Source: Polyangiales bacterium (GTDB lineage Bacteria > Myxococcota_A > Polyangia > Polyangiales > JADJQN01). Taken from it: 64,000 nucleotides of DNA. The translations under genes were made by a program, and so were the position numbers. The stretch spans positions 1 through 64,000 of the forward strand of contig CAXNJO010000012.1 in the NCBI GenBank assembly GCA_964202905.1, read 5' to 3'. Of this stretch, positions 1-57,077 are shown in pieces. The notes beneath the pieces are model-generated. The model did no database searches and was not told the DNA's origin. It saw only the letters and a program-made list of their open reading frames with translations. Position 1 is the stretch's first letter. Every line of letters starts with the position of its first letter.

Positions 1-329
1 CGCCCCGCCTCGGCGAACTGCACCCCTGCCCAGGCCGCGCCGCCGCCCGACTCGTACTCCTTGCAGTGCGCGCCCTCGCCGACCACGACCTCGTCACCGC
101 GTCGGCAGTGCAACAGCAGCGCGAGCTGGTTCGCCATCGTCCCCGAAGGGACGAAGAGCGCGGCCTCCTTGCCGAGCAGCGCGGCCGTCTCAGCCTCGAG
201 CGCGTGCGCGCCCGGGTCCTCGCCGTAGACGTCGTCGCCCACGTCCGCCGCCGCCATCGCGCGGCGCATGCCCTCCGTGGGCCGGGTCACGGTGTCCGAG
301 CGGAGGTCGATGCGGTGCGCGGGCCTCAT
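1..329 (-). CDS. ltaE: Low-specificity L-threonine aldolase (runs off window start)
   Basis: Manual translation from ATG 329: [39 protein letters not shown]...[18 protein letters not shown]; canonical [17 protein letters not shown] and PSGTMAN motifs. Confidence 0.9.
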
Positions 330-4891: not shown

Positions 4892-6115
4892 TCAGCCCGC
4901 GATCACGCCGGCGGCGGCGAGCGCGTCGATCGCGGCGTCGTCGAGCCCCAGCTCGCGCAGCACCTCGCGCGTGTGCGCCGAGCGCGCCGGCCCGGCCCAG
5001 CGGGTCTGGCCGGGCGTCTCCGTGAGGCGCGGGAACATCGCGGGCAGCGTGTAGGCGACGCCGTCCGACTCCGCGCGCTCGAAGAGCCCGCGCGCCGCGA
5101 AGTGCGGGTCACGCAGCATGGCGGCCGCGTCGTGGATGGGCCCGACGGGCACCTCCGCGGCCTCGAGCGCGGCGAGGACGTCCGCGGCGTCGCGCGCCGC
5201 GGTGAAGGCGCAGATCGCCGCGTCGATCACGGGCTGCGCGGCGACCCGCGCGGCGTTGCCCGCGAGGCCGGGGTCATCGGCGAGGTCGTCACGCCCGATC
5301 GCGCGCATCAGGCGCCGGAACACCGACTCGCCGTTCGCGCCGATCACGACGCGGCGCCCGTCGCGCGTGGGGTAGGCGTCGCTCGGCGCGACGCCGGTGA
5401 TGGTCGTGCCCGAGGGCCCGCGCACGACGCCCCGCGCGGCGTAGTCGGGGATCACGCTCTCGAGCATCGCGAAGACGCTCTCGTAGAGCGCGACATCGAC
5501 GACCTGACCGCGGCCCGTCGCGTCGCGCACGCGCAGCGCGAGCAGCACGCCGAGCGCCGCGTGCAGGCCCGCGAGCGTGTCGCCGAGGCTGAGGTTCGCG
5601 CGCACGGGCGGCTCTCCGGGGAAGCCCGTGAGGTGCCGCAACCCGCCGATCGCCTCCGCGATCGCCGCGTACCCGGGCCGCCGCGCATACGGCCCCGTCT
5701 GGCCGAAGCCCGAGACCCGCGCGACGACGAGGCGCGGGTTGTCGGCGAGGAGCACCTCGGGACCGAGGCCCCAGGCCTCGAGCGTCCCGGGGCGGAAGCT
5801 CTCGACGAGGACGTCCGCGCGCGCCGCGAGCCGCCGCGCGATCGCGCGCCCCTCCGGGCGCCGCAGGTCGAGCGAGACGCAGCGCTTGTTGCGCGCGAGG
5901 CTCCGCCACCAGTACGAGGTGCCGGCGTCGTCCGTCTCGCGCCAGGTGCGGAGCGGATCGCCCGTGCGTGGCTCCTCGACCTTCACGACGTCCGCGCCGA
6001 AATAGCCGAGCAGCGCAGCCGCTGTCGGCGCGGCGACGAGCTGCGCGAGTTCGAGCACGCGCACGCCCTGGAGCGGCGCCGGGAGCGCAGGCGGCGGAGG
6101 CGTCGGGCCGGTCAC
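4892..6115 (-). CDS. CaiB/BaiF family III CoA-transferase
   Basis: PLQGVRVLEL, GADVVKVE, RNKRCVSLDL, ESFRPG, VSGFGQTGPY motifs. Confidence 0.92.
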   Translation of the reverse strand: MTGPTPPPPALPAPLQGVRVLELAQLVAAPTAAALLGYFGADVVKVEEPRTGDPLRTWRETDDAGTSYWWRSLARNKRCVSLDLRRPEGRAIARRLAARADVLVESFRPGTLEAWGLGPEVLLADNPRLVVARVSGFGQTGPYARRPGYAAIAEAIGGLRHLTGFPGEPPVRANLSLGDTLAGLHAALGVLLALRVRDATGRGQVVDVALYESVFAMLESVIPDYAARGVVRGPSGTTITGVAPSDAYPTRDGRRVVIGANGESVFRRLMRAIGRDDLADDPGLAGNAARVAAQPVIDAAICAFTAARDAADVLAALEAAEVPVGPIHDAAAMLRDPHFAARGLFERAESDGVAYTLPAMFPRLTETPGQTRWAGPARSAHTREVLRELGLDDAAIDALAAAGVIAG

Positions 6116-6203
6116 GCGCCGCAACGTAGCGCAGCGGAGCCCGGGGCGATGCGCGCGCGCCCACGCGCGGCGTCGAACCGCCAGGACGGACGCGCAGCGT
6201 CGC

Positions 6204-6938
6204 TCAGTAGATGCCGACCTTCAGGTCCGAGAACCACTGCAGGAAACGCGCGACGTCCGCGCCCCGGTAGATCGCGCCGTGCTGCGGACAGAGCAGATCG
6301 ATCGGCAACTTGGAGACGCGGTCGATCCACGCGCGCTTGGCCTCGTTGGAGCCCATCCAGCGCTCATGAAAGGCATGCGCGTAGCGGATGTGCCGGTCGA
6401 AGTCCTCGACGTAGAGCCCCTCGCGGTCGGGCGGGAGCAGCGCGGCGCCGATGTCCCCGGTGAAGAGCACCCGCGCGACCGGGTCGTAGAGGTGGAAATT
6501 TCCCGACGAATGGAGGTAGTGCGCGGGGACGGCCTCGAGCGCGAGGCCCGCGAGATCGAGCGTCGCGCCCTGATCGGGGATGGCGGCCATCGTCTGACCA
6601 TCCCCGCCGAAATGCGGGATGAACGTCGTCCACAGGCGGCTCGCGTGGCAGCGCAGCGTCGGGTCGAGCTCGAGCCAGAGGCCGAGCGACGAGATGACGT
6701 CCGGGTCCTGGTGGCTCGCGAAGATGGCGCGGATCGTCCGTGGGTCGACGACGCGCCCGAGCGCCGCGAAGACCGCCGGGAAGATCTCCGAGCCGCCCGG
6801 GTCCGTGAGCAGCGCCTGCCCGGCGTGCTCGACGACGTACTCGTTGGTGTCGATCACGTGGCCGGGGCGCTCGGGGTCGCGCGCGACGACGATCCAGCGG
6901 TGCGCGCCGCGCTCGAAGATGACGTGGGCTTTCTTCAT
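6204..6938 (-). CDS. ODP-type (oxygen-binding di-iron) metallo-beta-lactamase-fold protein
   Basis: DPGG, SHQDPD, AHYLHSSGN, LFTGDIG, PQHG motifs; stand-alone ~245 aa with no flavodoxin domain; next to chemoreceptor genes. Confidence 0.85.
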   Translation of the reverse strand: MKKAHVIFERGAHRWIVVARDPERPGHVIDTNEYVVEHAGQALLTDPGGSEIFPAVFAALGRVVDPRTIRAIFASHQDPDVISSLGLWLELDPTLRCHASRLWTTFIPHFGGDGQTMAAIPDQGATLDLAGLALEAVPAHYLHSSGNFHLYDPVARVLFTGDIGAALLPPDREGLYVEDFDRHIRYAHAFHERWMGSNEAKRAWIDRVSKLPIDLLCPQHGAIYRGADVARFLQWFSDLKVGIY

Positions 6939-6960
6939 CGGAGGGTCCCCTTCGGCGCGT

Positions 6961-7626
6961 TCATGTGAGGTTCCCGGCGAGGCGCGAGAGCTCCCGCAGC
7001 GAGGGTCGAAGCCCCTCGATCGCCTCCTCGAAGCGGCGCGCGGCCTCGGCGAGGCGCTGCCCCTCGAGCCCGGCAGCGGTCGTCTCGAGCTTCGCCGTGC
7101 GGGCGGCGGCGAGCGCGTAGGCGGACGCATCGTTCACGACGTCGAGGCGCCCGGCGAGCGCGAGGCGCAGCACACGGAGCGATTCTTCGGCCGCGGCGTC
7201 GTGGGCCTCGGCGGCGCGGATCGCCGCGGCGAGTGGCGGGGAGGCATCCCCGCCCGCACCGTGCTCCCCGGCGCGCCGCAGGGCTGCGCTGCGCCGGCGG
7301 CGTACGGCGACCCCGGCGAGCAGCGTCGTGAGCGCGTCGGCGAGTTGGTCGAGGGGCCGCACGGAGTTCGCGAGGGTGTCGCCCGTGACCCGCAGGTCGG
7401 CCGCCACGACGGCGAACCCCCGCGCGGCGTGGCCGGCGCGCAGCGCGCTCGCCATCGTCCCGACGCTGAGAAGCTTCATGTCGCCGCACGTCTCGACGAC
7501 GCGCTTCACGCACTCGCGGAGCGTGACCGCGTCCCGCAGGCTCGCACGCATGCGCTCGACCTCCAGAGCGCGTCGAACGGCAGGAGCCGCGCCCCGCTGA
7601 AGGTCCCCGGCGGAGGATTCGACCAT
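6961..7626 (-). CDS. Small soluble degenerate MCP-signalling-domain-like protein
   Basis: KLLSVGTMASALRAGHAARGFAVVAADLR resembles the MCP tip [29 protein letters not shown]; helical, no TM; start uncertain. Confidence 0.65.
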   Translation of the reverse strand: MVESSAGDLQRGAAPAVRRALEVERMRASLRDAVTLRECVKRVVETCGDMKLLSVGTMASALRAGHAARGFAVVAADLRVTGDTLANSVRPLDQLADALTTLLAGVAVRRRRSAALRRAGEHGAGGDASPPLAAAIRAAEAHDAAAEESLRVLRLALAGRLDVVNDASAYALAAARTAKLETTAAGLEGQRLAEAARRFEEAIEGLRPSLRELSRLAGNLT

Positions 7627-7709
7627 CCCGCCGCGGCAGGCCGGCGTCCCCGAACGTGGGGGGTCAAGTCCGGCGGTGACCGGCCGTTCGGTCCCGGCGG
7701 AGAACCACA

Positions 7710-8105
7710 GTGCCCGAGCGCATCCTCATCGTCGACGACTCGGTCATCGCGCGCCGCATGCTGCGCCAGGCCCTCGAGAGCGGGGGCTACGTCGTCGACG
7801 ACGCCCCGAGCGGCGAGGTCGCCCTGACGAAGCTCGCCGCCGCGCCGCTGCCGGCCCTCATCGTCTCGGACGTCAACATGGACGGGCTCAGCGGCCTGCA
7901 GCTGCTGGCCCAGCTCCGCGAGCGCTGGACGCGGATCGACCTGCCGGTGCTGATGCTCACCACCGAGGGCAGCGTCGAGATGCGCGGTGAGGGGCGCCGC
8001 GGCGGCGCCAACGGCTGGATCGTCAAGCCGTTCGATCCCCCGACGCTGCTCGGCCTCGTCGACAAGGTCATCCAAGGGGCGAAGGCGCTCCGCGAGGGCG
8101 CTTGA
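7710..8105 (+). CDS. cheY: CheY-like single-domain response regulator
   Basis: ILIVDDS, SDVNM, MLTTE, WIVKPF motifs. Confidence 0.9.
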   Translation: MPERILIVDDSVIARRMLRQALESGGYVVDDAPSGEVALTKLAAAPLPALIVSDVNMDGLSGLQLLAQLRERWTRIDLPVLMLTTEGSVEMRGEGRRGGANGWIVKPFDPPTLLGLVDKVIQGAKALREGA

Positions 8106-10105
8106 GGAACGACGACGACATCGCGCTCTTCCAGGAAGAGGCCGCCGAGCTGATCGAGGCGCTCGAGTCGGGCCTCCTCGAGCTCGAGCGCGAGCGCTCG
8201 GACGACGTCATCAACCGCGTTTTCCGCGCCATTCATACGATCAAAGGAGGCGCGGGCCTCGTCGGCCTCGACGAACTCGCCTATTTCTCCCACGAGGTCG
8301 AGCACCTCATGCAGCACGTCCGCGCGGGCGACGTCGAGCCCGCGGAGGACGTGATCGCCGTGCTCCTCGGCGCGACGGACCTCGTCCGGATGTTCGTCGC
8401 GGAGAACATCCCCGAAGAGTCCGCGAGGCGGCCCATCCTGCGGGGCCTGCACGACGTGCTCGCGCACCGCGGCCTGAAGCCGGCGAAGCCGCTCGAGCTG
8501 CCTGGTCGCTCCTCACCCGCGCCGGCACCCGCCGCGAGCGCGCCTGGCACGCCTGCGCGGCCCTCCGCGGGCCCGCGCGCCGCCGCCGATCAGGACGTCC
8601 CGGTCTACTCGGTCATCCCGCCGGAGGGGACCCCCGACGCCGCCCGCGCGAAGTGGGGCTTCCTCTTCAAGACCGGCACGCTGCCGCCGATTCCGCACGA
8701 CCCCAGCGAGCCAGCGCCGGAAATCCCGACCACCGCCTCGCTCTTCGACGCGCTCGGGCCGTCCCGCGCGGCGCCCGACGCCCCGCGCGCGGCGACGCCT
8801 CCCCCGGCGCCGGTGACCTCCGCCGGCATGCACCCAGCCGCCGAGCCGGTGCGCGCCGAGGAGCGCAAGCCCGCCGAAGTGCACGAGCCGCGCAGCGAGG
8901 CAGGCGCGGCCACGGTGCGCGTTCCCCTCGAGAAGCTCGACCGCCTCGTGAACCTCGTGGGCGAGTTGGTCATCGCGCAAGCCACGGTCGCGCAGCTCGT
9001 CAGCCAGGTCGACACGAGCCGCGTGCCCGCGCTCGTCGAGTCGATCGGCGTCATGGAGCGCCACTGCCGCGAGTTGCAGGAGCGCGTTCTCGGCGTGCGG
9101 ATGCTGCCGATCGAGACGGTGTTCGGGCGCTTCCAGCGGCTCGCGCGCGACCTCGGCGCCTCGTGCGGCAAGCGCCTCGAGCTGACGCTCGAGGGCGGCG
9201 AGACGGAGCTCGACAAGACCGTGCTCGAGAGCATGACCGACCCGCTCACGCACCTCGTGCGGAACGCGATCGACCACGGTCTCGAGACGCCCGCCGAGCG
9301 CGTCGCGGCCGGCAAGCCGGAGCTCGGGCACCTCGCGATCCGCGCCGCCCAGAAGAGCGGCACCGTCCGCATCGACGTGTCCGACGACGGCCGCGGCCTC
9401 GACCGCGACCGCATCTTCGCCAAAGCCGTGAAGCAGGGCCTCATCGACCCCGGCGAGCCCATCGACGACGCGTCGGTGTACTCGCTCGTGTTCCGGCCAG
9501 GCTTCTCCACCCGCGACGAGGTCTCGAGCCTCAGCGGGCGCGGCGTAGGGATGGACGTCGTCAAGAGCACGGTGGAGCGGCTCAAGGGGAGCGTCGGCAT
9601 CCTCACCGAGGCCGGCCGCGGCACGACCTTCCGCATCACGCTGCCGCTGACGATGGCGATCCTCGACGGCCTCGCCCTCGAGATGGGCGGGCAGGTGTAC
9701 GTCCTGCCTCTCGTCGCCGTGGTCGAGTCGGTCCGCGTCAGCCCCCAGCAGATCCGGCGCGTCGCCAACCGGCAGGAGGCCGTCGAGGTGCGCAGTGAGT
9801 TGCACCCGCTCGTGCGGCTCGCGGACGTCTTCGACGCCCACGCCACCTCCGACGACGCGACCCGCGGCATCGTCGTGATCGTGGACGACGGCGCGCGGCG
9901 CTACGCGCTCCTCGTCGACGACGTCGTCGGCCAGTACCAGGTCGTCGTCAAGAGCCTCGAAGCCAACTACGGGCGCGTCGCAGGGCTCTCTGGCGCCACC
10001 ATCCTCGGTGATGGTCGTGTCGCATTGATCCTCGATCCCCTGACCCTCGCCGAGGTCGCGCGTCACAAGGCGCGCGCCGCGGCCCCGGCCGACGCAGCGG
10101 AGTGA
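8102..10105 (+). CDS. cheA: Chemosensory histidine kinase CheA
   Basis: HPt FRAIHTIKGGAG; LDRLVNLVGELVI; HLVRNAIDHG; DDGRGL; SGRGVGMDVV; C-terminal CheW-like P5. Confidence 0.96.
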   Translation: MRNDDDIALFQEEAAELIEALESGLLELERERSDDVINRVFRAIHTIKGGAGLVGLDELAYFSHEVEHLMQHVRAGDVEPAEDVIAVLLGATDLVRMFVAENIPEESARRPILRGLHDVLAHRGLKPAKPLELPGRSSPAPAPAASAPGTPARPSAGPRAAADQDVPVYSVIPPEGTPDAARAKWGFLFKTGTLPPIPHDPSEPAPEIPTTASLFDALGPSRAAPDAPRAATPPPAPVTSAGMHPAAEPVRAEERKPAEVHEPRSEAGAATVRVPLEKLDRLVNLVGELVIAQATVAQLVSQVDTSRVPALVESIGVMERHCRELQERVLGVRMLPIETVFGRFQRLARDLGASCGKRLELTLEGGETELDKTVLESMTDPLTHLVRNAIDHGLETPAERVAAGKPELGHLAIRAAQKSGTVRIDVSDDGRGLDRDRIFAKAVKQGLIDPGEPIDDASVYSLVFRPGFSTRDEVSSLSGRGVGMDVVKSTVERLKGSVGILTEAGRGTTFRITLPLTMAILDGLALEMGGQVYVLPLVAVVESVRVSPQQIRRVANRQEAVEVRSELHPLVRLADVFDAHATSDDATRGIVVIVDDGARRYALLVDDVVGQYQVVVKSLEANYGRVAGLSGATILGDGRVALILDPLTLAEVARHKARAAAPADAAE

Positions 10106-10109
10106 CCCC

Positions 10110-10583
10110 ATGACCGAGCCCACCAGCAGCGGGTCGACCCTCGCGGCGACCCTCCCGAACAAGTACCTGACCTTTTTCCTCGGCGAGGAGGAGTACGGCG
10201 TCGACATCCTCGCCGTGCAAGAGATCCGCGGGCTCTCGGCGACGACGCGGCTCCCGGGCGCCCCGGACGCCGTGCTCGGTGTCATCAACCTGCGCGGCGT
10301 CATCGTGCCCGTGCTCGACCTGCGCGTGCGCCTCGGCCTCACGCCGGCCGTCGCGACGCCGACGAGCGTGATCATCGTGCTCGGGATTGCCGGGCGCATG
10401 ATCGGGCTCCAGGTGGACGGCGTCAGCGACGTCCTCGACGTCGACGCCGGCTCGGTCCAAGCGGCCCCCGATCTCGGCAACGGCTCCGCCGATCTCCTCG
10501 GCATGGCGCGGCGGGGAGAGTCCCTCGTCGTGCTCCTCGATGCCGCCCGCGTCGTGAGCGTCGCGACCCCCAACGCATCCTGA
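10110..10583 (+). CDS. cheW: Chemotaxis coupling protein CheW
   Basis: [37 protein letters not shown]. Confidence 0.95.
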
Positions 10584-10609
10584 AACGCTCTCAAAAGGAA
10601 TCCGACACC

Positions 10610-12837
10610 ATGGAAGCAGACGACAAGCCGACGAAGCGCAGGGCCGCGGGGGACAAGGCGGCAGCCGACAGGGACGGATCGAAGGGTGAAGCCGGTGCCG
10701 CGCTCGCCACGGTCAAGGGCCGTGGTCTCGCCGCGAAGTCCCGCGCGAAGGGCGCCGCCGCCGAGGCGAAGCCCCTCGCCCTCGCGAAGCCCCGCGCGAC
10801 GCAAGCGAGCGCGATCACGGGCCTCGCTGCGGCCGCGCTCGGCGCGGCGCGCACGAACATCCTCGTCGCCAACCCCGAGCACGTGATCGTCTACGCGAAC
10901 GAGGCGTCGCTGCACCTCCTGCGCTCCCTCGAGGGAGACCTGCGCAAGACGCTCCCGAACTTCGCCGCCGACCGCGTCGTCGGGTCGTCGATGGACGTCT
11001 TCCACAAGAACCCCGACCACCAGCGGCGCCTCGTCTCGGACGAGAGCCGCCTGCCGCACCGCGCCGACGTGCGCCTCGGCGAGATCATCCTGAATCTCCA
11101 CGTCAGCCCGATCCACGGGGCGGACGGCAAACGCAGCGGGACGATCGTCGAGTGGCAGGACGTCTCGCAGATCCGCCGCGAGGAGACCGAGCGCGCCCGC
11201 CTCCTCGAGGAGCGCGCCCGCCTGTCAGCCGCCGTCGAATCGGCGCGGACGAACATCCTCTTCGCGGACACCAGCAACACGATCATCCTCGCGAACACGG
11301 CGTCGGTCCGGCTGCTGCGCGAGCTCGAGCCCGAGATCCGCAAGGCCATGCCGCACTTCAGCGCGGACCGCGTGCTCGGCTCGAACGTCGACATCTTCCA
11401 CAAGAACCCGGAGCACCAGCGCCGCATCATCGCGGACGAGCGCCGTCTCCCGCACCGCGCCGACATCCAGATGGGCACGGTGACGCTGAACCTCAACGTC
11501 ACGGCCGTGACGGACGGCAACGGCGTCCGCATCGGCACGATCGTCGAGTGGCAGGACGTCTCGCAGGAGCGGCGCGCCGAGAGCGCCATCCAGGGCCTCA
11601 TCCACGCCGCGTCCGAGGGCCGCATCGACGGCCGCATCGACGCCGCGACGTACACGGGGACCTACCTCGCGATCGCGCAGGGCGTGAACGCGATGCTCGA
11701 CGCCGTCGAGATGCCGCTCTCGGAGATGTCCACGGTGTTCGAGTCGTGGAGCAGGGGCGACCTCACCGCGCAGGTGCGCGGCGATTACCGCAACGACATG
11801 GGCGCGCTCAAGGACTCGGCGAACACGCTCGTCGAGACCCTGCGCAACATCGTCGGCGACATCCGCACGGCGGCGTCGTCGGTCGCGCACGCGTCGAACG
11901 AGATCTCGACGGGCACGGACGATCTCTCGCGGCGCACCGAGCAGCAGGCGGCCTCGCTCGAGGAGACCGCGAGCACCATGGAAGAGATGACGGCCACCGT
12001 GCGCCAGAGCGCGGACAACGCGCGGCAGGCGAGCCAGCTCGCGGTCGGTTCGCGCGAGACGGCCGACAAGGGCGGCGCGGTCGTGCGGCGCGCGGTCGGC
12101 GCGATGCAGGAGATCAGCAAGTCGTCTGCGCGGATCGGCGAGATCATCAACGTCATCGACGAGATCGCCTTCCAGACGAACCTCCTCGCGCTCAACGCGG
12201 CGGTCGAAGCGGCGCGTGCCGGCGAGCAGGGCCGCGGCTTCGCGGTCGTCGCCTCCGAGGTGCGCAACCTCGCGCAACGCTCGGCCTCCGCCGCCAAGGA
12301 GATCAAGGCGCTCATCCGCGATTCGAGCGAGAAGGTCGCGGACGGCGCGCGACTCGTCGAGCAGAGCGGCACGACGCTCGAGGATATCGTCAACTCGGTC
12401 AAGCGCGTCGCCGACATCGTGAGCGAGATCTCGGCCGCCTCGGCCGAGCAGAGCACCGGGCTCGAGCAGATGAACACGGCCGTCACGCAGATGGACCAGT
12501 TCACCCAGCAGAACTCGGCGCTCGTCGAGGAGACCGCCAGCGCGGCGGCGAGCCTGCGCGAGCAATCCACGGAGATGGAGCGGCTCGTCGGCTTCTTCCA
12601 GACCGGCGACGAGCAACAGACCCGCGCGCCGAAGCGTCTGGCTGCGCCCGCCGCCCGTCCGCAGCTTGCGGCGCGAGTCGCCCCGGCCCGCGCGCCGGTC
12701 GCTGCCCCGGCCACCCGCAGGGCCGCCCCCGTGTCTGCGCCCGTCCGCAAGGGTGCGCCGTCCGGAGCCGTCCGCGTGCAGCCCTCGAGCACGCGCCGGA
12801 CTCGGACGACGACGAGCCGGGCTTCGAAGAGTTCTGA
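10610..12837 (+). CDS. aer2: Cytoplasmic Aer2-like chemoreceptor (two PAS domains, HAMP region, signalling domain); frameshift near 3' end
   Basis: Two PAS repeats, each with FHKNPxHQ and [36 protein letters not shown]; alternative frame ends [16 protein letters not shown] at 12837 (CheR-tether pentapeptide). Confidence 0.85.
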
Positions 12838-12853
12838 GCAGGCGTCAGGGCCC

Positions 12854-13774
12854 ATGAACACGCCCGTGCAGCGGGGGTCGGGGACGGACGAGGTCGTCGC
12901 GGAGAGCGGAGGCTACGTCCTCTACCGCCACGAGTTCGAGGATCTGCGCGCGCTCATCCGGTCGCGCGCAGGGATCCACCTCCCCGACCACAAAGCCACG
13001 CTCGTGGCGTCGCGGCTCGCGCGGCGCCTGCGCGCGCTGGACCTGCGCTCGTACGGGCTCTACGCGGCGCTCCTCCAGGAGTACGGGCCCACCGCCGACG
13101 CCGAGCTCGAGCAGTTCATCAACGCGCTCACCACCAACAAGACCAGTTTCTACCGCGAGCGCCAGCACTTCGACGTGTTGCGCGACGAGGTGCTGATCCC
13201 GCTCTACAGCAAGCGCGGGGTCGGCGCGCGCGTGCGCATCTGGTGCTCGGCCGCCTCGACGGGCGAAGAGCCCTACACGCTCGCGCTCACCGCGCTCGAG
13301 GCAGCGGGCGCAGCGGCGCCGGGGCGCGGACCCTCGGACACCCTGATCCTCGCGACCGACCTCGACACCTCCGTGCTCGCGACGGCGAAGCGCGGCGTGT
13401 ACTCCGAGGAGGTCGTCGAGCAGGTGCCGCCCGCGCTCGCGACCCGCTACCTCACGCGTGGGACGGGCGAGCAGGAGGGCCGCGTGCGCCCGCGCCGCGA
13501 GGTGCGCGCGCTCATCTCCTTCCAGCAGCTCAACCTGATCGCCCCGAAATGGCCGATGCGCGGGCCCTTCGACGCGATCTTCTGCCGCAACGTCCTCATC
13601 TACTTCGACGCGCCGACGCAGGACGAGGTCGTGCGACGGCAGGCCGCGCTGCTCGCGCCGGAGGGCCGCCTCTTCCTCGGCCACTCGGAGTCGATGCTCG
13701 GCACGCGCGCCGGCCTGCGCGGCGCGGGGCATTGCGTGTTCCTGCACCGCGACCCGGCCCAGGCCGCCCGATGA
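12854..13774 (+). CDS. cheR: Chemotaxis methyltransferase CheR
   Basis: [45 protein letters not shown]; own ATG at 12854. Confidence 0.92.
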
Positions 13775-14340
13775 GCGAGGTCGGCGACGAGCTCACCGTG
13801 ACGCTCTACATCGGTGGCTACTACGCCACGCACGAGCGCGCCGTGATCCGCACCGTCCTCGGCTCCTGCATCGCGGTCTGCCTCTTCGACCCCGTCGCGG
13901 CCACAGGCGGCATGAACCACTACATGCTCCCGACGCCCGGCTCCGACGCCGCGGACCCCTCGCGCTTCGGGATCTACGCGATGGAGTTGCTGATCGGCGA
14001 CCTGCAGAAGGCCGGCGGGCAGCGCAAGCGCCTCGTCGCGAAGGTCTTCGGCGGCGCGCACGTGCTCGAGAGCCGCGAATCGCGCGACTCCGTGCCCAAC
14101 CAGAACATCGCGTTCATCGACGAGTTCCTCGCCGAGGAGCGCATCCCGGTGCTCGCGCGCGACGTCGGGGGCCGCGCCCCGCGCAGCGTGCGCTTCCACG
14201 CGAACTCCGGTCGCGCGTTCGTGCGATTGCTCCCGCCCGTCGCCTTCCAGGGCGTGGTCGCCCTCGAAGAGGCCGCCGTGCGCGGCAGCGTGCGGCCACC
14301 GCGCCCGCGCGCGACCGACGCCGAACTCTTCGAGGACTGA
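13771..14340 (+). CDS. cheD: Chemoreceptor glutamine deamidase CheD
   Basis: [31 protein letters not shown] motifs. Confidence 0.93.
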
Positions 14341-14343
14341 GCC

Positions 14344-15417
14344 GTGCCCTCCCGCAAGATCCGCGTCCTCGTCGTCGACGACTCCGCGCTCGTCCGCAAG
14401 ATCCTCTCGGAGGTCCTCGCGCGCGACCCGCAGATCGAGGTCGTCGGCACCGCGAGCGACCCCTACATCGCGAAGGACAAGATCCTCGCGCTGCAACCCG
14501 ACGTCCTCACGCTCGACGTCGAGATGCCGCGCATGGACGGCCTGCGCTTCCTCGAACTGGTCATGACGCGGCGCCCGATGCCCGTCGTGATGGTCTCGAC
14601 GATGACGGCCGAGGGCGCCGAGACGACGCTGCGCGCGCTCGAGCTCGGGGCCGTCGACTTCGTGACCAAGGCCTCGCTCGACGTCGCGCGGCGCCTGCCC
14701 GATCAGGTCTCGGAGATCGCGGAGAAGGTGAAGCTCGCCGCCAAGGCGCAGGTGGCCGCGATCACCCCGCGGCCCGCCCCGCCGCGCGCCCCCGAGGGCG
14801 GACGCCGACGCGCGGTCGCCTCGCGGCTCACGCGCACGACCCAGGCGATCATCGCGATCGGCGCCTCGACGGGCGGCACCGAGGCCCTCCGCGACGTGCT
14901 CTCACGCTTCCCCGCGGACGCGCCCGCGACCCTCGTCGTGCAGCACATGCCCGCCGCGTTCACCGCGGCCTTCGCGAGGCGACTCAACGAGACCTGCGCC
15001 GTCGGCGTGAAGGAGGCCGCCGATGGCGACCGCGTGCTCGACGGGCACGTGCTCCTCGCGCCCGGCGGCCGCCACATGCGCGTCGAGCGGCTCGGGACCT
15101 ACTACGTCGTGCGCATCGACGAGGAGCCGCCCGTCAACTTCCACCGCCCGAGCGTCGACGTCCTCTTCGACAGCGTCGCCGCGCACGTCGGCCGCGACGC
15201 GGTCGGCGTGGTGCTCACGGGCATGGGCGACGACGGCGCGCGCGGCCTGCTCACGATGCGCAACGCCGGCGCGCGGACGCTGGTGCAGGACCAGGCCACC
15301 TCGCTCATCTGGGGCATGCCCCGCGTCGCGTCCGAGCTCGGTGCGGCCGAGTTCGAAGTGCCGCTCGACGGCGTCGCCGACAAGGCCCTCGCCCTCGCGC
15401 ACGACCGCGGCGCCTGA
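14344..15417 (+). CDS. cheB: Chemotaxis response-regulator methylesterase CheB
   Basis: N-terminal receiver; [28 protein letters not shown]. Confidence 0.96.
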
Positions 15418-15497
15418 GCACGTCCTGCGACGCACGACCACGACCTTCGGTCACGACGTCCGACCACAGCGCGCGCAGGTGCCGCGCCGCACGTGCC

Positions 15498-16487
15498 ATG
15501 TCACACCCTGGCGCCATGCCGTCCGACCCCATCCCTGCGCGTGACGCCGCCCCAGCGGGTGCCGCGCCTTCCGGCGACCTCGAGGCCGCCATCGCGCGGC
15601 TCCGCGCGGGTGGGCTCGTCGCCTTCCCGACCGAGACGGTGTACGGCCTCGGCGCGGACGCGCGCCGCGAGGACGCCGTGCGGCGCGTGTTCGCGGTGAA
15701 GGGGCGTCCCGCGGATCACCCGCTGATCCTGCACTTCGCCAACGCCGCGGGCGCACTCGCCGCCGCGCGCGAGGTCCCGGAGGCCGCGCGCGTGCTGGCC
15801 GACGCGCTGTGGCCGGGCCCGCTCACGCTCGTGCTGCGGCGCGCGGCCTGGGTGCCCGACGTCGTGACGGGCGGGCAGGACACCGTGGGCGTGCGCGTGC
15901 CGGCCCACCCCATCGCGCAGGCGCTCCTCGCGGGGCTCGGCGCGCCGATCGCAGCGCCGAGCGCCAACCGCTTCGGCGCGGTGAGCCCGACGACGGCCGC
16001 GCACGTGCGCGCGGACCTCGGCGACGACGTCGACCTCGTGCTCGACGGGGGCCCCGCGACGGTCGGCCTCGAGTCGACGATCGTCGATCTGACGTGCGAC
16101 CCGCCTACCATCTTGCGTGAGGGTGGTGTCTCGCGCGAAGAGCTCGGCGCCCTGCTCGCGCTCGCCCCGCCCGGCACGGCCCACGGCGGCGTGCGCGCAC
16201 CGGGCACCCTCGCCGCGCACTACGCGCCGCGCGCCCGCGTGCGGCTCGTCGCCCCGGACGCGCTCGCCGCCGAGCACGCGCGCCTCTCCGCGCTCGGCGC
16301 CCGCGTCACGGTGCTCGAGGCGCCGCGCGACGCAGCGGAGACGGCTGCCCTCGCGCGCGACCTCTACGCACGCCTGCGCGGCGCCGACGACGCCGAGATG
16401 GACGTGGTGCTCGCGGTGCTGCCCGCGCCGCACGGGCTCGGCGCTGCCATCGCCGACCGCCTGCGCCGCGCGGCGGCGGCGGGCTGA
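15498..16487 (+). CDS. tsaC: L-threonylcarbamoyladenylate synthase (Sua5/TsaC, long form)
   Basis: VAFPTETVYGLGA, KGRPADHPLILH, PSAN, GLESTIVD, APG..HYAP; start may be 15516. Confidence 0.93.
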   Translation: MSHPGAMPSDPIPARDAAPAGAAPSGDLEAAIARLRAGGLVAFPTETVYGLGADARREDAVRRVFAVKGRPADHPLILHFANAAGALAAAREVPEAARVLADALWPGPLTLVLRRAAWVPDVVTGGQDTVGVRVPAHPIAQALLAGLGAPIAAPSANRFGAVSPTTAAHVRADLGDDVDLVLDGGPATVGLESTIVDLTCDPPTILREGGVSREELGALLALAPPGTAHGGVRAPGTLAAHYAPRARVRLVAPDALAAEHARLSALGARVTVLEAPRDAAETAALARDLYARLRGADDAEMDVVLAVLPAPHGLGAAIADRLRRAAAAG

Positions 16488-16630: not shown

Positions 16631-16966
16631 TCACGCTGCGCCGAAGCGCGGGGAGACGCCCGCGGCCTCGTGCACGATCCGCGCGACCGTGGCGAACAGC
16701 TCGTCGCCGGTGCCCTTGTCGTCGAGCCAGCGCCCCGTCGCCTCGTCCCACGAGAAGTGCCAGGCCCGCTGCCCGCCCGCGAGCCAGATCTGCCGCACGG
16801 GGCGCTGCGTGTTGACGATGCACTTGCGCCCCGTCGCGAAGGCGATCGTCACCACGTCGCCCGCGACGTCGAGGTCAGCGTCGTCGATGTCGATCGACTC
16901 GAAGCCGTCGACGAGCTGGCGGAAGACATCGTGCGCGAGGCGGAGATAACGCGGTTCGTCGAGCAT
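16631..16966 (-). CDS. cyaY: Iron donor protein CyaY (frataxin family)
   Basis: MLDEPRYLRLA...GDVVTIAF...IVNTQRPVRQIWLA...WHF. Confidence 0.88.
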   Translation of the reverse strand: MLDEPRYLRLAHDVFRQLVDGFESIDIDDADLDVAGDVVTIAFATGRKCIVNTQRPVRQIWLAGGQRAWHFSWDEATGRWLDDKGTGDELFATVARIVHEAAGVSPRFGAA

Positions 16967-17025
16967 GGCGCGTAGGCTTCTAGAACCGCTGGCACGCGCG
17001 CACAAGCCCCGGTACCGTCGGCACG

Positions 17026-53653: not shown

Positions 53654-54187
53654 ATGAGCACCTCGTACCTCGTCCTCTCGGCCCTCGGGCCCGATCGCCC
53701 CGGCCTCGTCGCCGACCTCACCACCTTCCTCGCCGAGCGCGGCGCGAACGTCGAAGACAGCCGCATGGCCGTGCTCGGCGGCGAGTTCGGCATGATGGCG
53801 CTCGTGTCCGGTCCGGACGAGGCGATCGCGCGCGTCGAGCAGGAGCTCGCACAGCTCGAGCCGAAGACGGGCGCGGCGTTCGTCTCGCGGCGCACGCGCA
53901 GCCCCGAAGAGCACAGGAAGGGCGAGGCGCTGCCCGTCACGATCGAGGCCGAGTCGTTCGACCGAGAAGGCATCGTGCGCGCCATCGCCGCGGCGCTCGA
54001 GGCGCTCGCGATCAACATCGTGTCGCTCGAGACGACGCAGTGGAGCGCGCCGTTCACGGGCGCGACGCTCTTCCGCATCGTGGTGCAGGCGGATGTGCCG
54101 CGCGCGACGGGCCTCCTTCAGCTGCGCCGCGCGATGGAAAAGGTCGGCGTCGAGGAGAGCCTCGACATCGAGGTGCGCACGCGCTGA
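53654..54187 (+). CDS. GcvR-like tandem ACT-domain protein
   Basis: ALGPDRPGLV, NVEDSRMAVLGGEF, DREGIV, INI. Confidence 0.85.
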   Translation: MSTSYLVLSALGPDRPGLVADLTTFLAERGANVEDSRMAVLGGEFGMMALVSGPDEAIARVEQELAQLEPKTGAAFVSRRTRSPEEHRKGEALPVTIEAESFDREGIVRAIAAALEALAINIVSLETTQWSAPFTGATLFRIVVQADVPRATGLLQLRRAMEKVGVEESLDIEVRTR

Positions 54188-54241
54188 GCGGGCCGCGCGC
54201 ATGCCCCCGCACGCGCGTGTCGACGCGGCGGTGAGCGCCGA

Positions 54242-55414
54242 TCAGCGCGCGAACCCGAGCGCGTCGAGCGAGGCGCCCCAGAGCGCGCCACCGAGCAGGA
54301 GCGGCGTGACCGGCATGCGCCGACGCACGAGCAGCCAGGCCGCGCCGACGCCGAGCGCGAGCGTCGGCAGGTCGACGAGCGCCGCGCGCGCGAGCTGCAC
54401 GAGCACCGCGGCCATCAGCGCGAGCGAGGCGACGTTGACGCCGTCGAGGAAGGCCGACGCGCCCGGCGAGCGGCGGATCCACGGCACGAGCGGGCCGCTC
54501 AGCGCCACGTAGACGAACGCCGGCGCGAAGATGCCCGCGGTCGCGACGAGCGCGCCCGGGACGCCCGCGAGCACGTAGCCGAGGAACGTCGCGGTGGTGA
54601 AGACGGGGCCCGGCGTCACCTGCCCGACGGCGACCGCGTCGAGGAGCTGCGCGTCGCTGATCCAGCCGAGCCGCGCGACGAGCTCAGCGCGGAGGAACGC
54701 CACGAGCACGTAGCCGCTGCCGAAGAGCACCGCCCCGATCTTCGCGAAGATCAGGAAGATCGGGGGGAGCGCGGGTGCGCCCGCGACGCTGCCGGCAGCG
54801 GCCGCGAGCGAGGCGAGCGGTGCGAGCTGGTGCAGACCGGGACCGCGGCGCCCGGGGCCGGCGACCCGCGCGGAGAGCCACATCCCGAGCCCCGCGCCGA
54901 CGAGGATCGCGAGCTCGCCCACGCCGGCGAGCGCGAGGACGAGCGCGACGACGCCGAGCACGCGCAGACGCAGGTCACGCGCGGCCGTCGGGGCCAGGGC
55001 CACGATGGCCTGCGCGATGACCCCGAGGATCACGGGCTTGACGCCGTAGAGGACCCCGCCGACGTACGGGCGCGCGCCGAAGCGCACGTAGGCCCACGCG
55101 CACGCGCCGGTGATCGCCATCGCCGGCACGATGAACGCGAGGCCCGCGACGACGAGTCCGGTCCAGCGCCTGCGCTCCCAGCCGATGTGGATCGCGAGCT
55201 CGGTCGAGCTCGGGCCGGGGATGAGCGCGGTCGCGCCGACGAGATCGAGGAAGCGCGCCTCCGTCAGCCAGCGGCGACGCACGACGACCTCCTCGCGCAT
55301 CATCGCGACGTGCACCGCCGGGCCGCCGAACGAGGTCGCGCCTAGGCGGGCGAACAGCACCGCAAGCTCACGCAGCGAGGTGCGTGATGCGGGCGAGGAC
55401 GCGCCCTCGCTCAC
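54242..55414 (-). CDS. chrA: Chromate transporter (long-chain CHR)
   Basis: SFGGP, IPGPSSTE, LFGSGYV, GQVTPGPVFTTATFLGY. Confidence 0.92.
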   Translation of the reverse strand: MSEGASSPASRTSLRELAVLFARLGATSFGGPAVHVAMMREEVVVRRRWLTEARFLDLVGATALIPGPSSTELAIHIGWERRRWTGLVVAGLAFIVPAMAITGACAWAYVRFGARPYVGGVLYGVKPVILGVIAQAIVALAPTAARDLRLRVLGVVALVLALAGVGELAILVGAGLGMWLSARVAGPGRRGPGLHQLAPLASLAAAAGSVAGAPALPPIFLIFAKIGAVLFGSGYVLVAFLRAELVARLGWISDAQLLDAVAVGQVTPGPVFTTATFLGYVLAGVPGALVATAGIFAPAFVYVALSGPLVPWIRRSPGASAFLDGVNVASLALMAAVLVQLARAALVDLPTLALGVGAAWLLVRRRMPVTPLLLGGALWGASLDALGFAR

Positions 55415-56193
55415 GCGAGCCCGGCGACGAAGTCACGCACGCGGGGCGCGATGCGCGGCGCCTGATCGAGGGGGAGCATGTGGCCCGCGCCGGGGAAGAT
55501 CTCGAGGCGCGCGCCGCGCAACGTCGCCGCGAGGTGTTGCGCGTACTTCGGCGGCGTGAGCGGATCGTCGGCGCCCGCGAGGACGAGGGCGGGCGCGTCG
55601 ATCGCGTCGAGGGCGCGGAGGCGGTCGAAGGCGTCCGCGGCGAGCCAATCCGCGAGCGAGGTCGCAGGGGGCACGGCTCGCGCGTGCGCATCGATCGCGG
55701 CGATGCGCGCGGGATCGGCGCCGGGCGACCAGCCGAGGAGCGACGCGCTCTCCGTCGACGACGACGCCTGCACGCGCATCGCCTCGAGCACGCTCGGGTG
55801 CACCCGCAGGCGCGCGCCCGTCGACGCGAGCACGAGCCCCGCGAGCGGGCGCGTCGCCGCGAGCTCGAGCGCGACACCGCCGCCGAGCGAATGCCCGAAC
55901 ACGACGGCGCGCGGCGCGTCGAGCGCGTCGAGCACGCCCCCGACGAAGGTCGCGAGCGCCGCGACGGACGCGCACGGCGCGCCGGGCGTGCCACCGCGCC
56001 CCGGCAGATCGGGGGCGATCACGTCGAGCTCCGGGAGCGCCTCGGCGAGCGGATCGGCGACGTGCCGGTCGCAGCCCGCCCCATGCACGAAGAGCAGCAC
56101 GCCGACACGCGGCGCGCGCGCACGGTGCACGGCGACCGTGGTCTCGCGCCCCGCCGCGCGGACGTGGACGAGCGTGGGGCCGGGCGCGCTCAC
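55411..56193 (-). CDS. Alpha/beta-fold hydrolase
   Basis: FVHGAG, DLPGRG, GHSLGG, GADD, GAGH; GTG start overlaps the upstream stop. Confidence 0.88.
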   Translation of the reverse strand: MSAPGPTLVHVRAAGRETTVAVHRARAPRVGVLLFVHGAGCDRHVADPLAEALPELDVIAPDLPGRGGTPGAPCASVAALATFVGGVLDALDAPRAVVFGHSLGGGVALELAATRPLAGLVLASTGARLRVHPSVLEAMRVQASSSTESASLLGWSPGADPARIAAIDAHARAVPPATSLADWLAADAFDRLRALDAIDAPALVLAGADDPLTPPKYAQHLAATLRGARLEIFPGAGHMLPLDQAPRIAPRVRDFVAGLA

Positions 56194-57041: not shown

Positions 57042-57077
57042 GGCGGCGTGAGCGTAATGCGCGCGAACGTCGGGCGA

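Follow-up and report, generated by a model that had tools for sequence, protein, structure and literature searches.

An F7-class chemosensory operon with an Aer2-like receptor beside a predicted di-iron ODP/mini-receptor module in an uncultured myxobacterium

Results

An F7 operon next to a two-gene sensor module

This study analyzed a 64,000-nucleotide stretch of Polyangiales bacterium DNA (the window). It carries an F7 chemosensory operon, encoding an Aer2-like receptor with two PAS domains, beside a mobile module consisting of a metallo-beta-lactamase protein, a predicted oxygen-binding di-iron protein (ODP), and a mini-receptor. We give even odds to the reading that this module passes an oxygen/iron signal to the CheA of the operon. 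The parts and the ODP-MCP pairing were already known, and the present analysis adds the prediction of a two-tip bundle, the end of the bundle at which ODP docks, and a conserved patch.

The gene order cheY-cheA-cheW-MCP-cheR-cheD-cheB on the plus strand (7710-15417) and the divergent unit of pseudo-MCP and ODP on the minus strand, both described in a first-pass annotation, were confirmed (Table 1). The 83-bp gap reported between the two units was corrected to 158 bp, because the pseudo-MCP starts at ATG 7551, which has a GGAGG site upstream, and not at 7626. In the sister contig L129, an in-frame stop lies within the extension from ATG 7626, and the gap to cheY is 159 bp. The ODP start was placed at 6938. 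The phospho-His, N box, and G box of CheA were all present, and ODP/CoA-transferase and Sua5/CyaY flank the che cluster. The pair and the operon may share a promoter in the gap, as the annotation proposed, but the searches lent this no support: no sigma-70-like site was found in 6000-16000 (0.2 expected), no sigma-54, sigma-28, or FNR pattern was found in the 158-bp gap, and the divergent layout was confined to the host lineage, with none among 17 other che-linked loci.

Table 1. Features of the locus, in positions of the window
Feature	Position	Strand	Basis or remark
ODP, 244 aa, metallo-beta-lactamase fold without flavodoxin domain	6204..6938	-	PF19583
Pseudo-MCP (mini-receptor), 196 aa	6961..7551	-	Predicted single-chain four-helix bundle
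Mini-receptor tips	Tip 1 about residues 25-55; tip 2 about residues 145-175		Tip 1 clear; tip 2 faint
Predicted ODP-docking surface on the mini-receptor	Residues 4-16 and 72-87		Tip-distal end
Divergent intergenic gap, 158 bp	7552..7709	.	Presumed promoter region, without identified motif
cheY, single receiver domain	7710..8105	+	PF00072, E 2e-24; aligned with other CheYs
cheA (Hpt, dimer, HATPase, and CheW domains), F7 clade	8102..10105	+	Trees
cheW	10110..10583	+	PF01584, E 3e-35
Aer2-like soluble receptor, PAS-PAS-diHAMP-36H, flexible tail, C-terminal GFEEF	10610..12837	+	
Frame slip joining receptor to cheR	12795..12803 (near 12798-12800)	+	Sister contigs in frame
cheR, 306 aa	12854..13774	+	PF01739 and PF03705
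cheD	13771..14340	+	PF03975, E 1e-26
cheB with receiver domain	14344..15417	+	NF001965 above cut-off

The operon belongs to the F7 class

The top NCBIfam match of the receptor was Aer2 (NF041847), at 675.8 bits against a cut-off of 1200; because the score lies below the cut-off, we call the receptor Aer2-like and not a Vibrio equivalog. It matched PaAer2 (3vol) with an E value of 2e-40, and the lack of any TM-like window indicates a soluble protein. Aligned with Tar/Tsr profiles, E. coli Tar, and Vibrio receptors, its 36H (36-heptad) signalling domain was free of net gaps, and it spans the same length as that of E. coli Tar. The heme His (E-eta) and Trp (I-beta) were conserved in PAS2, as aligned to 3vol/4hi4, and the same motifs were found in PAS1 (57% identical). 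The GFEEF tether matches the C-terminal pattern x-[HFYW]-x-x-[HFYW]; it is in frame in the sister contigs L128 and L129 and out of frame in the host assembly. A single-sequence fold of the receptor was of low confidence (pLDDT 52) and was left unused.

A CheA tree (43 rows, quick search) grouped the host protein with F7 references apart from F8 (SH-aLRT 93). The same grouping was obtained with concatenated CheA/CheB/CheR (19 rows, fast search; SH-aLRT 94), a tree that left the place within F7 open and omitted 15 CheA rows lacking CheB or CheR, 1 long branch, 7 dense-clade rows, and one row whose cheB/cheR came from the wrong cluster. The CheA phylogeny proposed as a check thus agreed with domain length and heme residues, and the F7/Aer2 assignment was upheld: judged by sequence, the operon is of the F7 class with an Aer2-like receptor, putatively sensing O2 through heme. 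The claim of a purely cytoplasmic array was unsupported, since Aer2/F7 arrays are described, in the portion of PMC7184735 consulted, as membrane-associated tall arrays.

The joined receptor-CheR reading frame

As assembled, a single 1054-aa ORF (10610-13774) covers both the MCP and cheR, a point missed in the first-pass annotation. Past the slip, the proper C-terminus of the receptor (GFEEF at 12820-12834, stop at 12835-12837) continues in another frame; the cheR start is fixed at 12854, and near 12780-12800 the codon scores begin to favor the GFEEF frame. A frameshift detector based on codon scores proved too blunt, flagging just 7 of 2769 pairs of adjacent genes, and an orthologue test was used instead; 15 of 166 orthologues changed frame in the host assembly, in which rpoB is split in three pieces. 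The joining is most likely an assembly frameshift.

Host and genome context

The first-pass guess of a myxobacterial host was borne out by a myxobacterial paralogue family (TIGR02266; four matches over the cut-off, none in the Gallionella control) and by RpoB affinity, the same-genus RpoB being 72% and 68% identical to those of two named Myxococcota versus 57% for Gallionella. TIGR03382 matched no genome, controls included, and was uninformative. No flagellar gene occurs among the annotated genes of the window, as had been noted, but the genome carries a complete flagellar cluster on contig C3, leaving the suggestion of an output unrelated to flagella by default unsupported. The genome also encodes two further CheA systems besides the F7 operon and a cbb3-type oxidase subunit, the latter indicating low-oxygen respiration. 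Two relatives (G001 and G003) have FliG and lack CheD, which fits an accessory role of the F7/CheD system.

The metallo-beta-lactamase protein is an ODP

The protein matched PF19583 at E 3e-70 (236.5 bits; cut-off 27.2). Its matches to the solved ODPs 6qrq (E 4e-72) and 6qnm (E 5e-58) far exceeded those to flavodiiron proteins (2e-6), and the identification as a true ODP, and not an FprA fragment, was sustained. The metal motifs are identical to those of 6qrq/6qnm, and the residues H76, D78, D80, H140, H143, D162, and H220, which presumably include the iron ligands, were invariant in 82 of 82 aligned paired ODPs. No flavodoxin Pfam match was found in its 244 aa, compared with 410 aa in solved FprA chains. 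By these sequence measures, the protein is an ODP, a predicted di-iron O2/Fe sensor. The ODP tree united five other Myxococcota ODPs in a clade (95) that excludes the host copy, which was placed near Betaproteobacteria (89); given this position, the host copy may represent a separate arrival.

The mini-receptor is a predicted four-helix bundle

The partner matched MCPsignal weakly (E 0.005) and fell short of a canonical MCP (PF00015 17 bits against a cut-off of 34.6; 196 aa), and 77 of 82 family members match MCPsignal. Profile comparison revealed that the family tip is homologous to MCP tips (99% probability, E 4e-19), and the family profile matched PDB MCP signalling domains at E about 1e-10. 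The second tip scored 20.2 (E 0.002), a small margin above 40 block shuffles, none of which exceeded 18.8, and direct comparison of the two halves yielded a probability of only 8%. In tip 1 of the host protein, the family ALNA motif (N in 76 of 82 members, G here) and the tip Phe, which presumably are trimer contacts, were lost; the RAG, GF, VV, and R positions were retained, and the tip-1 Glu was absent across the whole family. The mini-receptor of the sister species has the same altered tip and 86% overall identity. No CheR-tether motif was found at the end of the protein, which is probably too short for methylation helices.

The secondary-structure line of the model ran without a break at tip 1. 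Fold searches returned only generic designed helical bundles (best Z 14.7), matches of topology, not function, on which the four-helix reading is based. A word-based homologue search returned 2 proteins only, and an Atlas search returned unnamed clusters, one with 11% MCPsignal. The mini-receptor is predicted, on modelling grounds, to be one four-helix bundle mimicking the tip of a receptor dimer. The literature searched described neither a natural mini-receptor with two tips nor a docking site for ODP, although Muok et al. 2019 may already describe the short MCP; PMC9855816 did not mention ODP.

Predicted docking of ODP on the mini-receptor

The predicted complex of ODP and mini-receptor scored 0.70, compared with 0.01 for the best of three controls. 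Of 157 solved complexes, 116 reached the mark used, as did 2 of 215 mismatched pairs; these rates apply only approximately to the present case. Runs shared at least 93% of their contacts, and the partner pLDDT was 81. The ODP patch E51/F53/P54/F57/L87 is conserved among paired ODPs (73-82 of 82) and altered in all eight other-type ODPs examined from the host's order, and the mini-receptor was absent from 9 of 9 stretches around other-type ODPs of that order. Positions F53/L87 are also kept in both solved ODPs. The models suggest that ODP very probably binds the mini-receptor. A review places ODP in direct interaction with its cognate receptors (PMC6978683, in part); according to sections of PMC7666581, the partner receptor of the Treponema ODP modulates CheA, and cryo-tomography of the arrays gave no obvious ODP position.

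Distribution of the pair

The mini-receptor gene preceded ODP in all 80 related loci (4 of them in the seed profile). The pair was inside or beside che operons in 17 of the 80; of 45 long loci, 39 held it alone, lacking any core che gene within 9 kb. Only the host and L129 showed the divergent layout; elsewhere in Myxococcota, the pair was co-oriented behind cheB or unlinked. In L066 it follows the cheB of an F7 operon and in L068 it follows cheR-cheD-cheB, and three Myxococcota lineages (host with L129, L066, and L068) have it beside a cheR-cheD-cheB operon; in G029, the pair and the operon are on separate contigs, both short. CheD was present in all six Myxococcota genomes known to carry the pair versus 49 of 301 genomes in the host's order, counts drawn from kin and not from independent genomes, and in 46 of 50 genomes whose pair locus has no core che gene. 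Cultured relatives carrying the pair are Zoogloea, Azovibrio, Vogesella, Chitinibacter, and Leeia. The ODP-MCP pairing is a mobile module, as already published (TREND Fig. S1), which the first-pass annotation did not note. Of the synteny proposed for a check, adjacency to the operon recurred in the three lineages and the divergent layout did not extend beyond the host and L129; adjacency and CheD counts bore out the tie of the pair to such chemosensory systems.

Discussion

Proposed mechanism

ODP is predicted to be a detachable sensor domain on the tip-distal end of the mini-receptor, leaving the tips free. Fe(II)/O2 loading of ODP would alter the bundle or its occupancy and, by way of the contacts that tip 1 would make with CheW/CheA, the activity of CheA; the Aer2 hemes would bind O2 alongside, and CheY would be the signal exit. 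The system would be an accessory low-oxygen pathway, not the motility core. Its most likely role would be to tune swimming, or else a surface/stress state, along the oxygen gradients of a lake. That the pair feeds the CheA of the F7 operon appears somewhat more probable than the opposite, whereas an output to the flagellar motor appears somewhat less likely than not. According to the part of PMC10107281 consulted, Aer2 systems elsewhere do not directly steer flagella.

Several other explanations were weighed. The module may work but signal through one of the two further CheA systems, or through whichever array is available; its position would then reflect an insertion accident kept in one small lineage. 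The many loci in which it stands alone, the separate (short) contigs of G029, the rarity of the divergent layout, the separate place of the host ODP in its tree, and the empty promoter-motif scans are in keeping with this explanation; nevertheless, the recurrent adjacency in three Myxococcota lineages and the co-occurrence with CheD render it unlikely. We consider it similarly unlikely that the mini-receptor has ceased to signal as a receptor in the host and acts under ODP control as a decoy or cap, binding CheW/CheA or receptor tips so as to damp or limit the array, or that it merely holds and stabilizes ODP. The lost ALNA and tip Phe, the missing Glu, and the untethered, short chain favor such a role, but the retained tip-1 positions, the homology of the family tip to MCP tips, and the same changed tip in the sister species argue against it.

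Two further readings appear highly improbable. In one, the metallo-beta-lactamase protein is a fragment of an FprA-like oxygen/NO detoxifying enzyme and its helical partner has nothing to do with chemotaxis; a source gives the name flavorubredoxin to 6 of 10 cluster members, and similarity to flavodiiron proteins is present but weak. The ODP matches are more than 50 orders of magnitude stronger, the HQDPD motif is shared with both solved ODPs, the flavodoxin domain is absent, and the partner family matches solved MCP signalling domains. In the other, the strain truly makes the 1054-aa Aer2-CheR fusion, as a result of mutation or programmed frameshift, the covalent link replacing the pentapeptide tether. 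The frame is open across the junction, and among contigs of five runs none spans 12750-12822, so that reads neither confirm nor deny the slip. We rejected the fusion because L128 and L129, the sister contigs, keep the frame and have cheR as a separate gene, and because the assembly slips frame often, as the orthologues and rpoB indicate; the codon scores change frame at the junction, and three stand-alone 306-aa CheR members also occur in the same 90% cluster.

Returning to the module as an input to the F7 operon, the partner is possibly, though we would not wager on it, a natural single-chain pseudo-dimeric chemoreceptor (185-196 residues, two asymmetric tips, ODP at the far end), a portable plug-in through which F7 or F8 arrays would acquire di-iron O2/Fe(II) sensing; in the flagellated host, heme and di-iron signals would then meet at one CheA. 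Should the two-tip fold hold, this receptor architecture has no counterpart found in the searches made. With a soluble pair of 244 and 196 aa, a confident predicted interface, and named patch residues, communication between ODP and the kinase is directly testable. If docking occurs as predicted, a flagellated, uncultured myxobacterium would gain a second, iron-based oxygen input from mostly known parts. The function of the ancestral Aer2/F7 system is described as open in the part of PMC7184735 consulted, and a second oxygen/iron input on an F7 system would support an oxygen-linked role.

Comparison with known systems

The following comparisons draw on parts of the cited sources. An ODP with a cognate soluble receptor is known from Treponema denticola (TDE2498/TDE2496), and solved ODPs are 6qnm/6r9n and 6qrq/6qwo (Muok et al. 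2019 via PMC7666581, PMC6978683, and PMC7319448). The T. denticola protein is of the same family with the same metal motifs, and its gene is likewise coupled to an MCP homologue without transmembrane or sensing module; however, the 196-aa host partner is predicted to be a bundle with two tips and is not obviously homodimeric, the host order is MCP then ODP, and the host module adjoins an F7/Aer2 operon; T. denticola has a single CheA. The legend of TREND Fig. S1 (PMC7319448) marks two ODP-MCP operon orders and one MCP with 'a distinct sequence pattern'. Its tree includes Dechloromonas, Azonexus, Azovibrio, and Sulfuricella, genera also among the 80 loci, and shows myxobacterial ODPs mainly under protein-kinase labels; the part of the accompanying text consulted gives no structure, duplicated tip, or docking site.

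The F7 Che2/Aer2 systems of Pseudomonas aeruginosa and Vibrio cholerae/vulnificus have the same cheY-cheA-cheW-aer2-cheR-cheD-cheB order (PMC7184735, PMC10107281). The host receptor resembles V. cholerae Aer2 in being a soluble PAS-PAS-diHAMP-36H protein with His and Trp in both PAS domains and a pentapeptide tether. The match to P. aeruginosa Che2 made in the first-pass annotation held for gene order and F7 class, the host cluster being devoid of the McpA-like receptor, anti-sigma antagonist, and phosphatase of that stage 2 system. Further differences from known F7 Che2 systems are the single cheW, a DxT that reads DVS, the myxobacterial host, and the attached ODP module.

The F8 systems of Beta/Gammaproteobacteria (Gallionella, Methylobacter, Zoogloea) carry the same pair, in most cases inserted between cheW and cheR of the operon; at 34H, the receptors of these systems fall 13-14 residues short of the host's, and their CheA/B/R form a separate clade (support 100). 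The Cc-5 cluster of Corallococcus coralloides (PMC6194562) differs from the host locus in combining PAS plus globin in one MCP, in lacking CheY, and in belonging to a non-flagellated organism, and the part of the source consulted mentions no ODP; like the host locus, it is a myxobacterial, oxygen-sensing, putative aerotaxis cluster with two sensor types.

Gene layout of the divergent locus

The first-pass annotation had described a cheY-cheA-cheW-receptor-cheR-cheD-cheB operon on the plus strand, back to back with a helical and an MBL-fold gene on the minus strand, and all of these genes were found in the positions that it had given. The intervening gap, reported as 83 bp, required correction. 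In the sister metagenome contig L129, which has the same divergent layout, a stop interrupts the longer reading of the helical gene from 7626; because the start of this gene, here termed the mini-receptor (196 aa), is 7551 rather than 7626, the divergent gap is 158 bp (159 in L129). A CyaY/frataxin-like iron-binding gene is located 1.2 kb downstream of cheB (16631-17005, minus strand) and is a candidate link to the iron loading of the ODP. The region 54000-64000 displayed a strong AT skew (0.15-0.31) across several long minus-strand ORFs, and the three ORFs at 59946-63999 yielded no NCBIfam match at 1e-12.

Chemosensory genes of the window and further CheA clusters of the host genome (G000)
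Feature	Position	Strand	Basis
cheY	7710-8105	+	gene annotation
cheA	8102-10105	+	gene annotation
cheW	10110-10583	+	gene annotation
PAS-HAMP-MCP receptor	from 10610	+	gene annotation
cheD	13771-14340	+	gene annotation
cheB	14344-15417	+	gene annotation
ODP, MBL fold, 244 residues	start 6938	-	corrected start
mini-receptor, short helical gene	start 7551	-	GGAGG site upstream of corrected start
cheY-cheA-cheW-cheW-GAF-cheY	G000:C3 ~360000-365000 (L115:8182-13170)		host genome annotation
cheB, CheA (two CheW domains + receiver), cheW, cheR, cheX, double receiver, HDOD	G000:C12 ~72000-79000 (L116:5958-12805)		

The apparent receptor-CheR fusion

As assembled, positions 10610-13774 form a single 1054-aa frame, in which CheR follows the PAS, HAMP, and MCPsignal domains and which at face value represents a real receptor-CheR fusion. 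In another frame, GFEEF and a stop (12835-12837) lie 16 bases ahead of the cheR ATG at 12854. A metagenome pattern search retrieved two sister contigs, L128 and L129 (DNA identity approximately 83%), and in both the receptor remains in frame through GFEEF and cheR is separate; alignment of the window with L129 revealed a 2-base offset near 12799-12800. Three other members of the 90% cluster of the fused protein are stand-alone CheR proteins of 306 aa. Frame changes are frequent in this assembly, affecting 15 of 166 orthologues drawn from 400 kb of the same-genus genome G001, and rpoB is split into three pieces. Because the sister contigs are in frame, these cluster members are stand-alone, and the assembly is prone to slips, a real fusion was rejected as very unlikely, and we read the 1054-aa frame as an assembly artefact. 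Among the contigs from five runs, two cover 12360-12749 and 12823-13357 gap-free, and none bridges the fusion site (12749 to 12823). Two contigs from run X3 match 12802-12878 exactly and then diverge into unlike sequence; these are possibly graph chimeras or another strain.

Class of the operon and the Aer2-like receptor

The proposed F7 assignment agreed with both receptor length and the CheA phylogeny. The signalling domain of the receptor spans the same length as that of E. coli Tar and two Vibrio receptors (36H), and in nine proteobacterial ODP-linked operons the receptors fall short of this by 13-14 residues. According to passages of PMC7184735, 36H receptors belong to the F7 class and 34H receptors to F8. 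In quick tree searches, which place the window at the level of F7 only, it grouped with the E. coli, Cupriavidus, Sinorhizobium, and Vibrio systems on the basis of CheA (43 rows, SH-aLRT 93) and of CheA, CheB, and CheR combined (19 rows, SH-aLRT 94), and the 34H clade of ODP-linked proteobacterial operons stood apart with a support of 100.

When aligned to P. aeruginosa Aer2, PAS2 of the window receptor retains the His, Leu, and Trp positions, and PAS1 has the same motifs; His and Trp are the heme and O2 residues of the Aer2 PAS in the sections consulted of PMC10107281. The DxT motif is replaced by DVS. Aer2-type operons are not unique to the window within its order: a PAS-HAMP query matched 31 of 301 genomes, and the same seven-gene order occurred in 2 of 20 stretches examined, all 20 of which were devoid of an ODP. 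Many genomes of the order (L172-L185) carry a different cheA-cheW-PAS-receptor-cheB-cheR system with a PAS resembling that of Aer2, and the CheA of these systems belongs to neither F7 nor F8 but to a separate clade.

Spread of the ODP/mini-receptor pair

A detoxifying enzyme would be one reading of an MBL-fold protein. The earlier identification as an ODP was nevertheless borne out, and the metal motifs are invariant in 82 aligned sequences. From a species-genome scan we retained the best 80 of at least 587 confirmed relatives, mostly from Betaproteobacteria with four from Myxococcota. Within this set, a mini-receptor homologue (approximately 185 aa) was directly upstream of the ODP in all 80 loci, four of these homologues having belonged to the seed profile. 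A core che gene, always co-oriented with the pair, was present in 17 of the 80 (and in only 6 of the 45 flanked on each side by 9 kb or more). The back-to-back layout was limited to the window and L129 among the loci examined. In the Proteobacteria of this best-80 set, the pair is mostly inside F8 operons. In Myxococcota, it lies behind cheB of an F7 operon (L066) or, after a gap, behind cheR-cheD-cheB (L068); at locus L093 and in the Myxococcota genome G029, no operon adjoined the pair within the stretches examined. The pairing is already in print: TREND described two ODP-MCP operon orders, as well as one MCP whose sequence pattern is distinct (PMC7319448, in part).

The mini-receptor profile matched 2 of 301 genomes of the order (11 candidates scored per genome), and at the level of the phylum, 79 of 401 genomes contained an ODP of one type or another. 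In the ODP tree, the window copy did not group with the five further copies from Myxococcota and may have been acquired separately. CheD was present in 6/6 Myxococcota genomes with the pair versus 49/301 genomes of the order, and in 46 of 50 genomes chosen from pair loci without core che genes, counts that were taken among kin and are hence not independent. The ODPs from entries titled archaeon, Bordetella, Bacteroidota, and Ignavibacteria (L047, L049, L052, and L106) nest among Rhodocyclales sequences; these are probably mislabelled or mixed bins.

The mini-receptor and its predicted complex with the ODP

The mini-receptor family profile matched solved MCP signalling domains (E ~1e-10), and its N-terminal half matched MCP tips with 99% probability. 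An invariant Glu belongs to a C-terminal motif that aligned in register with the tip (E 0.002) and scored barely above 40 block shuffles, and direct half-to-half comparison was weak (8% probability). In the family consensus, tip 1, the clear hairpin tip, keeps ALNA, RAG, and GF and has lost the Glu, and the fainter tip 2 keeps an IEAA-like part; in the window and its sister, ALNA has drifted to SVGT. The AlphaFold2 model (pLDDT 92) most closely matched four-helix bundles made of a single chain (Z 14.7; 170 residues superposed with an rmsd of 2.7). We took the topology from these matches because the secondary-structure line of the model is unbroken at tip 1. The helix lengths suggest that both turns would lie at one end of the bundle, as the paired tips do in a dimeric receptor.

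Modeling the ODP, two irons, and the mini-receptor together produced a complex score of 0.70 (median of three runs) versus 0.01 for the best control. In calibration, 116 of 157 solved complexes and 2 of 215 mismatched pairs attained the mark for this score; these figures apply only approximately here because our own alignments and the ligand were used. The runs shared at least 93% of contacts, with a partner pLDDT of 81. The model supports, but does not show, that the ODP binds the mini-receptor. The score may possibly arise from likeness to a solved structure; among the entries listed by PDB sequence searches, none bore the name of an ODP/mini-receptor complex. The predicted interface places ODP 50-67 and 86-91 against mini-receptor 4-16 and 72-87, a docking surface approximately 25-45 residues from tip 1. 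Depending on the position, the ODP patch E51, F53, P54, F57, and L87 is conserved in 73-82 of the 82 ODPs that have a partner; it differs in 8/8 other-type ODPs from the order, and the mini-receptor was absent from 9/9 stretches around other-type ODPs of the order. Partner-side interface conservation is modestly raised (0.57 versus 0.43 for the rest of the helix and 0.53 overall). Direct binding of ODP to its cognate receptors is mentioned in part of a review (PMC6978683), and tomography of Treponema arrays shows no obvious ODP position in the portion consulted of PMC7666581. Neither the docking site nor the two-tip fold was described in the literature searched, which did not cover Muok 2019.

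Host, flagella, and other chemosensory systems

The suspected myxobacterial host was corroborated by TIGR02266, a myxobacterial paralogue family with four matches over the cut-off in the host and none in the Gallionella control, and by the same-genus RpoB, which shares 72% and 68% identity with two named Myxococcota versus 57% with Gallionella. The best metagenome matches to host DNA are from lake water, in one study, and the DNA may originate from these samples. A genome search for flagellar genes, as the first-pass annotation had proposed, located a complete cluster on contig C3 (motAB, fliC, fliF, fliG, fliM/N-type genes, flhAB, and fliA), and the motif opening the gene at the FliM position resembles the CheY-binding peptide. 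In this cluster, CsrA and FliW domains share one 200-aa ORF (L112:17357-17959). Also on C3, FliK C-terminal and FlgD domains occupy a single frame that runs off the edge of the locus (L113:18785-19999), which may be another assembly slip. A second FlhA-family gene (G000:C6:7389-9356) and a second flagellin (G000:C11:157765-158175) lie away from the cluster, and scanning their neighbours revealed no flagellar or secretion genes.

Besides the window operon, the host encodes two further CheA systems, on C3 and C12. The C3 cluster has no receptor, CheR, or CheB alongside, its CheA has an orthologue in G001, and it is a candidate motor-control system. In the C12 cluster, which shares its contig with the window, cheR and cheX each contain one frame slip. 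The genome also encodes a cbb3 oxidase subunit. Among the relatives, FliG was present and CheD and ODP were not found in G001 (80% complete) and G003 (90%); in G002 (94%), none of the three was found.

Proposed mechanism and comparison with known systems

Most likely, the ODP acts as a detachable sensor domain of the mini-receptor. Iron and oxygen loading would change how the ODP holds the tip-distal end of the bundle, and the mini-receptor tip would in turn act on CheW/CheA. The Aer2-like receptor, judging from its conserved residues, would sense O2 through PAS hemes and be adapted by CheR, CheB, and CheD, with its pentapeptide as the tether. Because of the repeated adjacency and the co-occurrence, we infer that the heme-based and ODP inputs both reach the window CheA, the signal leaving through CheY. 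The host's two further CheA systems bear on a rival routing, in which the pair signals through another CheA. The mini-receptor may alternatively be a decoy or cap.

With the detachable-sensor reading, the role that we favour is that of an accessory pathway tuning behaviour at low oxygen. According to part of PMC10107281, flagella are not steered directly by Aer2 systems elsewhere. Gammaproteobacterial clusters contain McpA and anti-sigma genes, whereas the flanks of the window operon contain neither. All component classes and the ODP-MCP pairing are already known; this analysis adds the predicted ODP docking site with its specificity control, a view of how the ODP/mini-receptor module is distributed between F7 and F8 systems, and the removal of the receptor-CheR fusion artefact.
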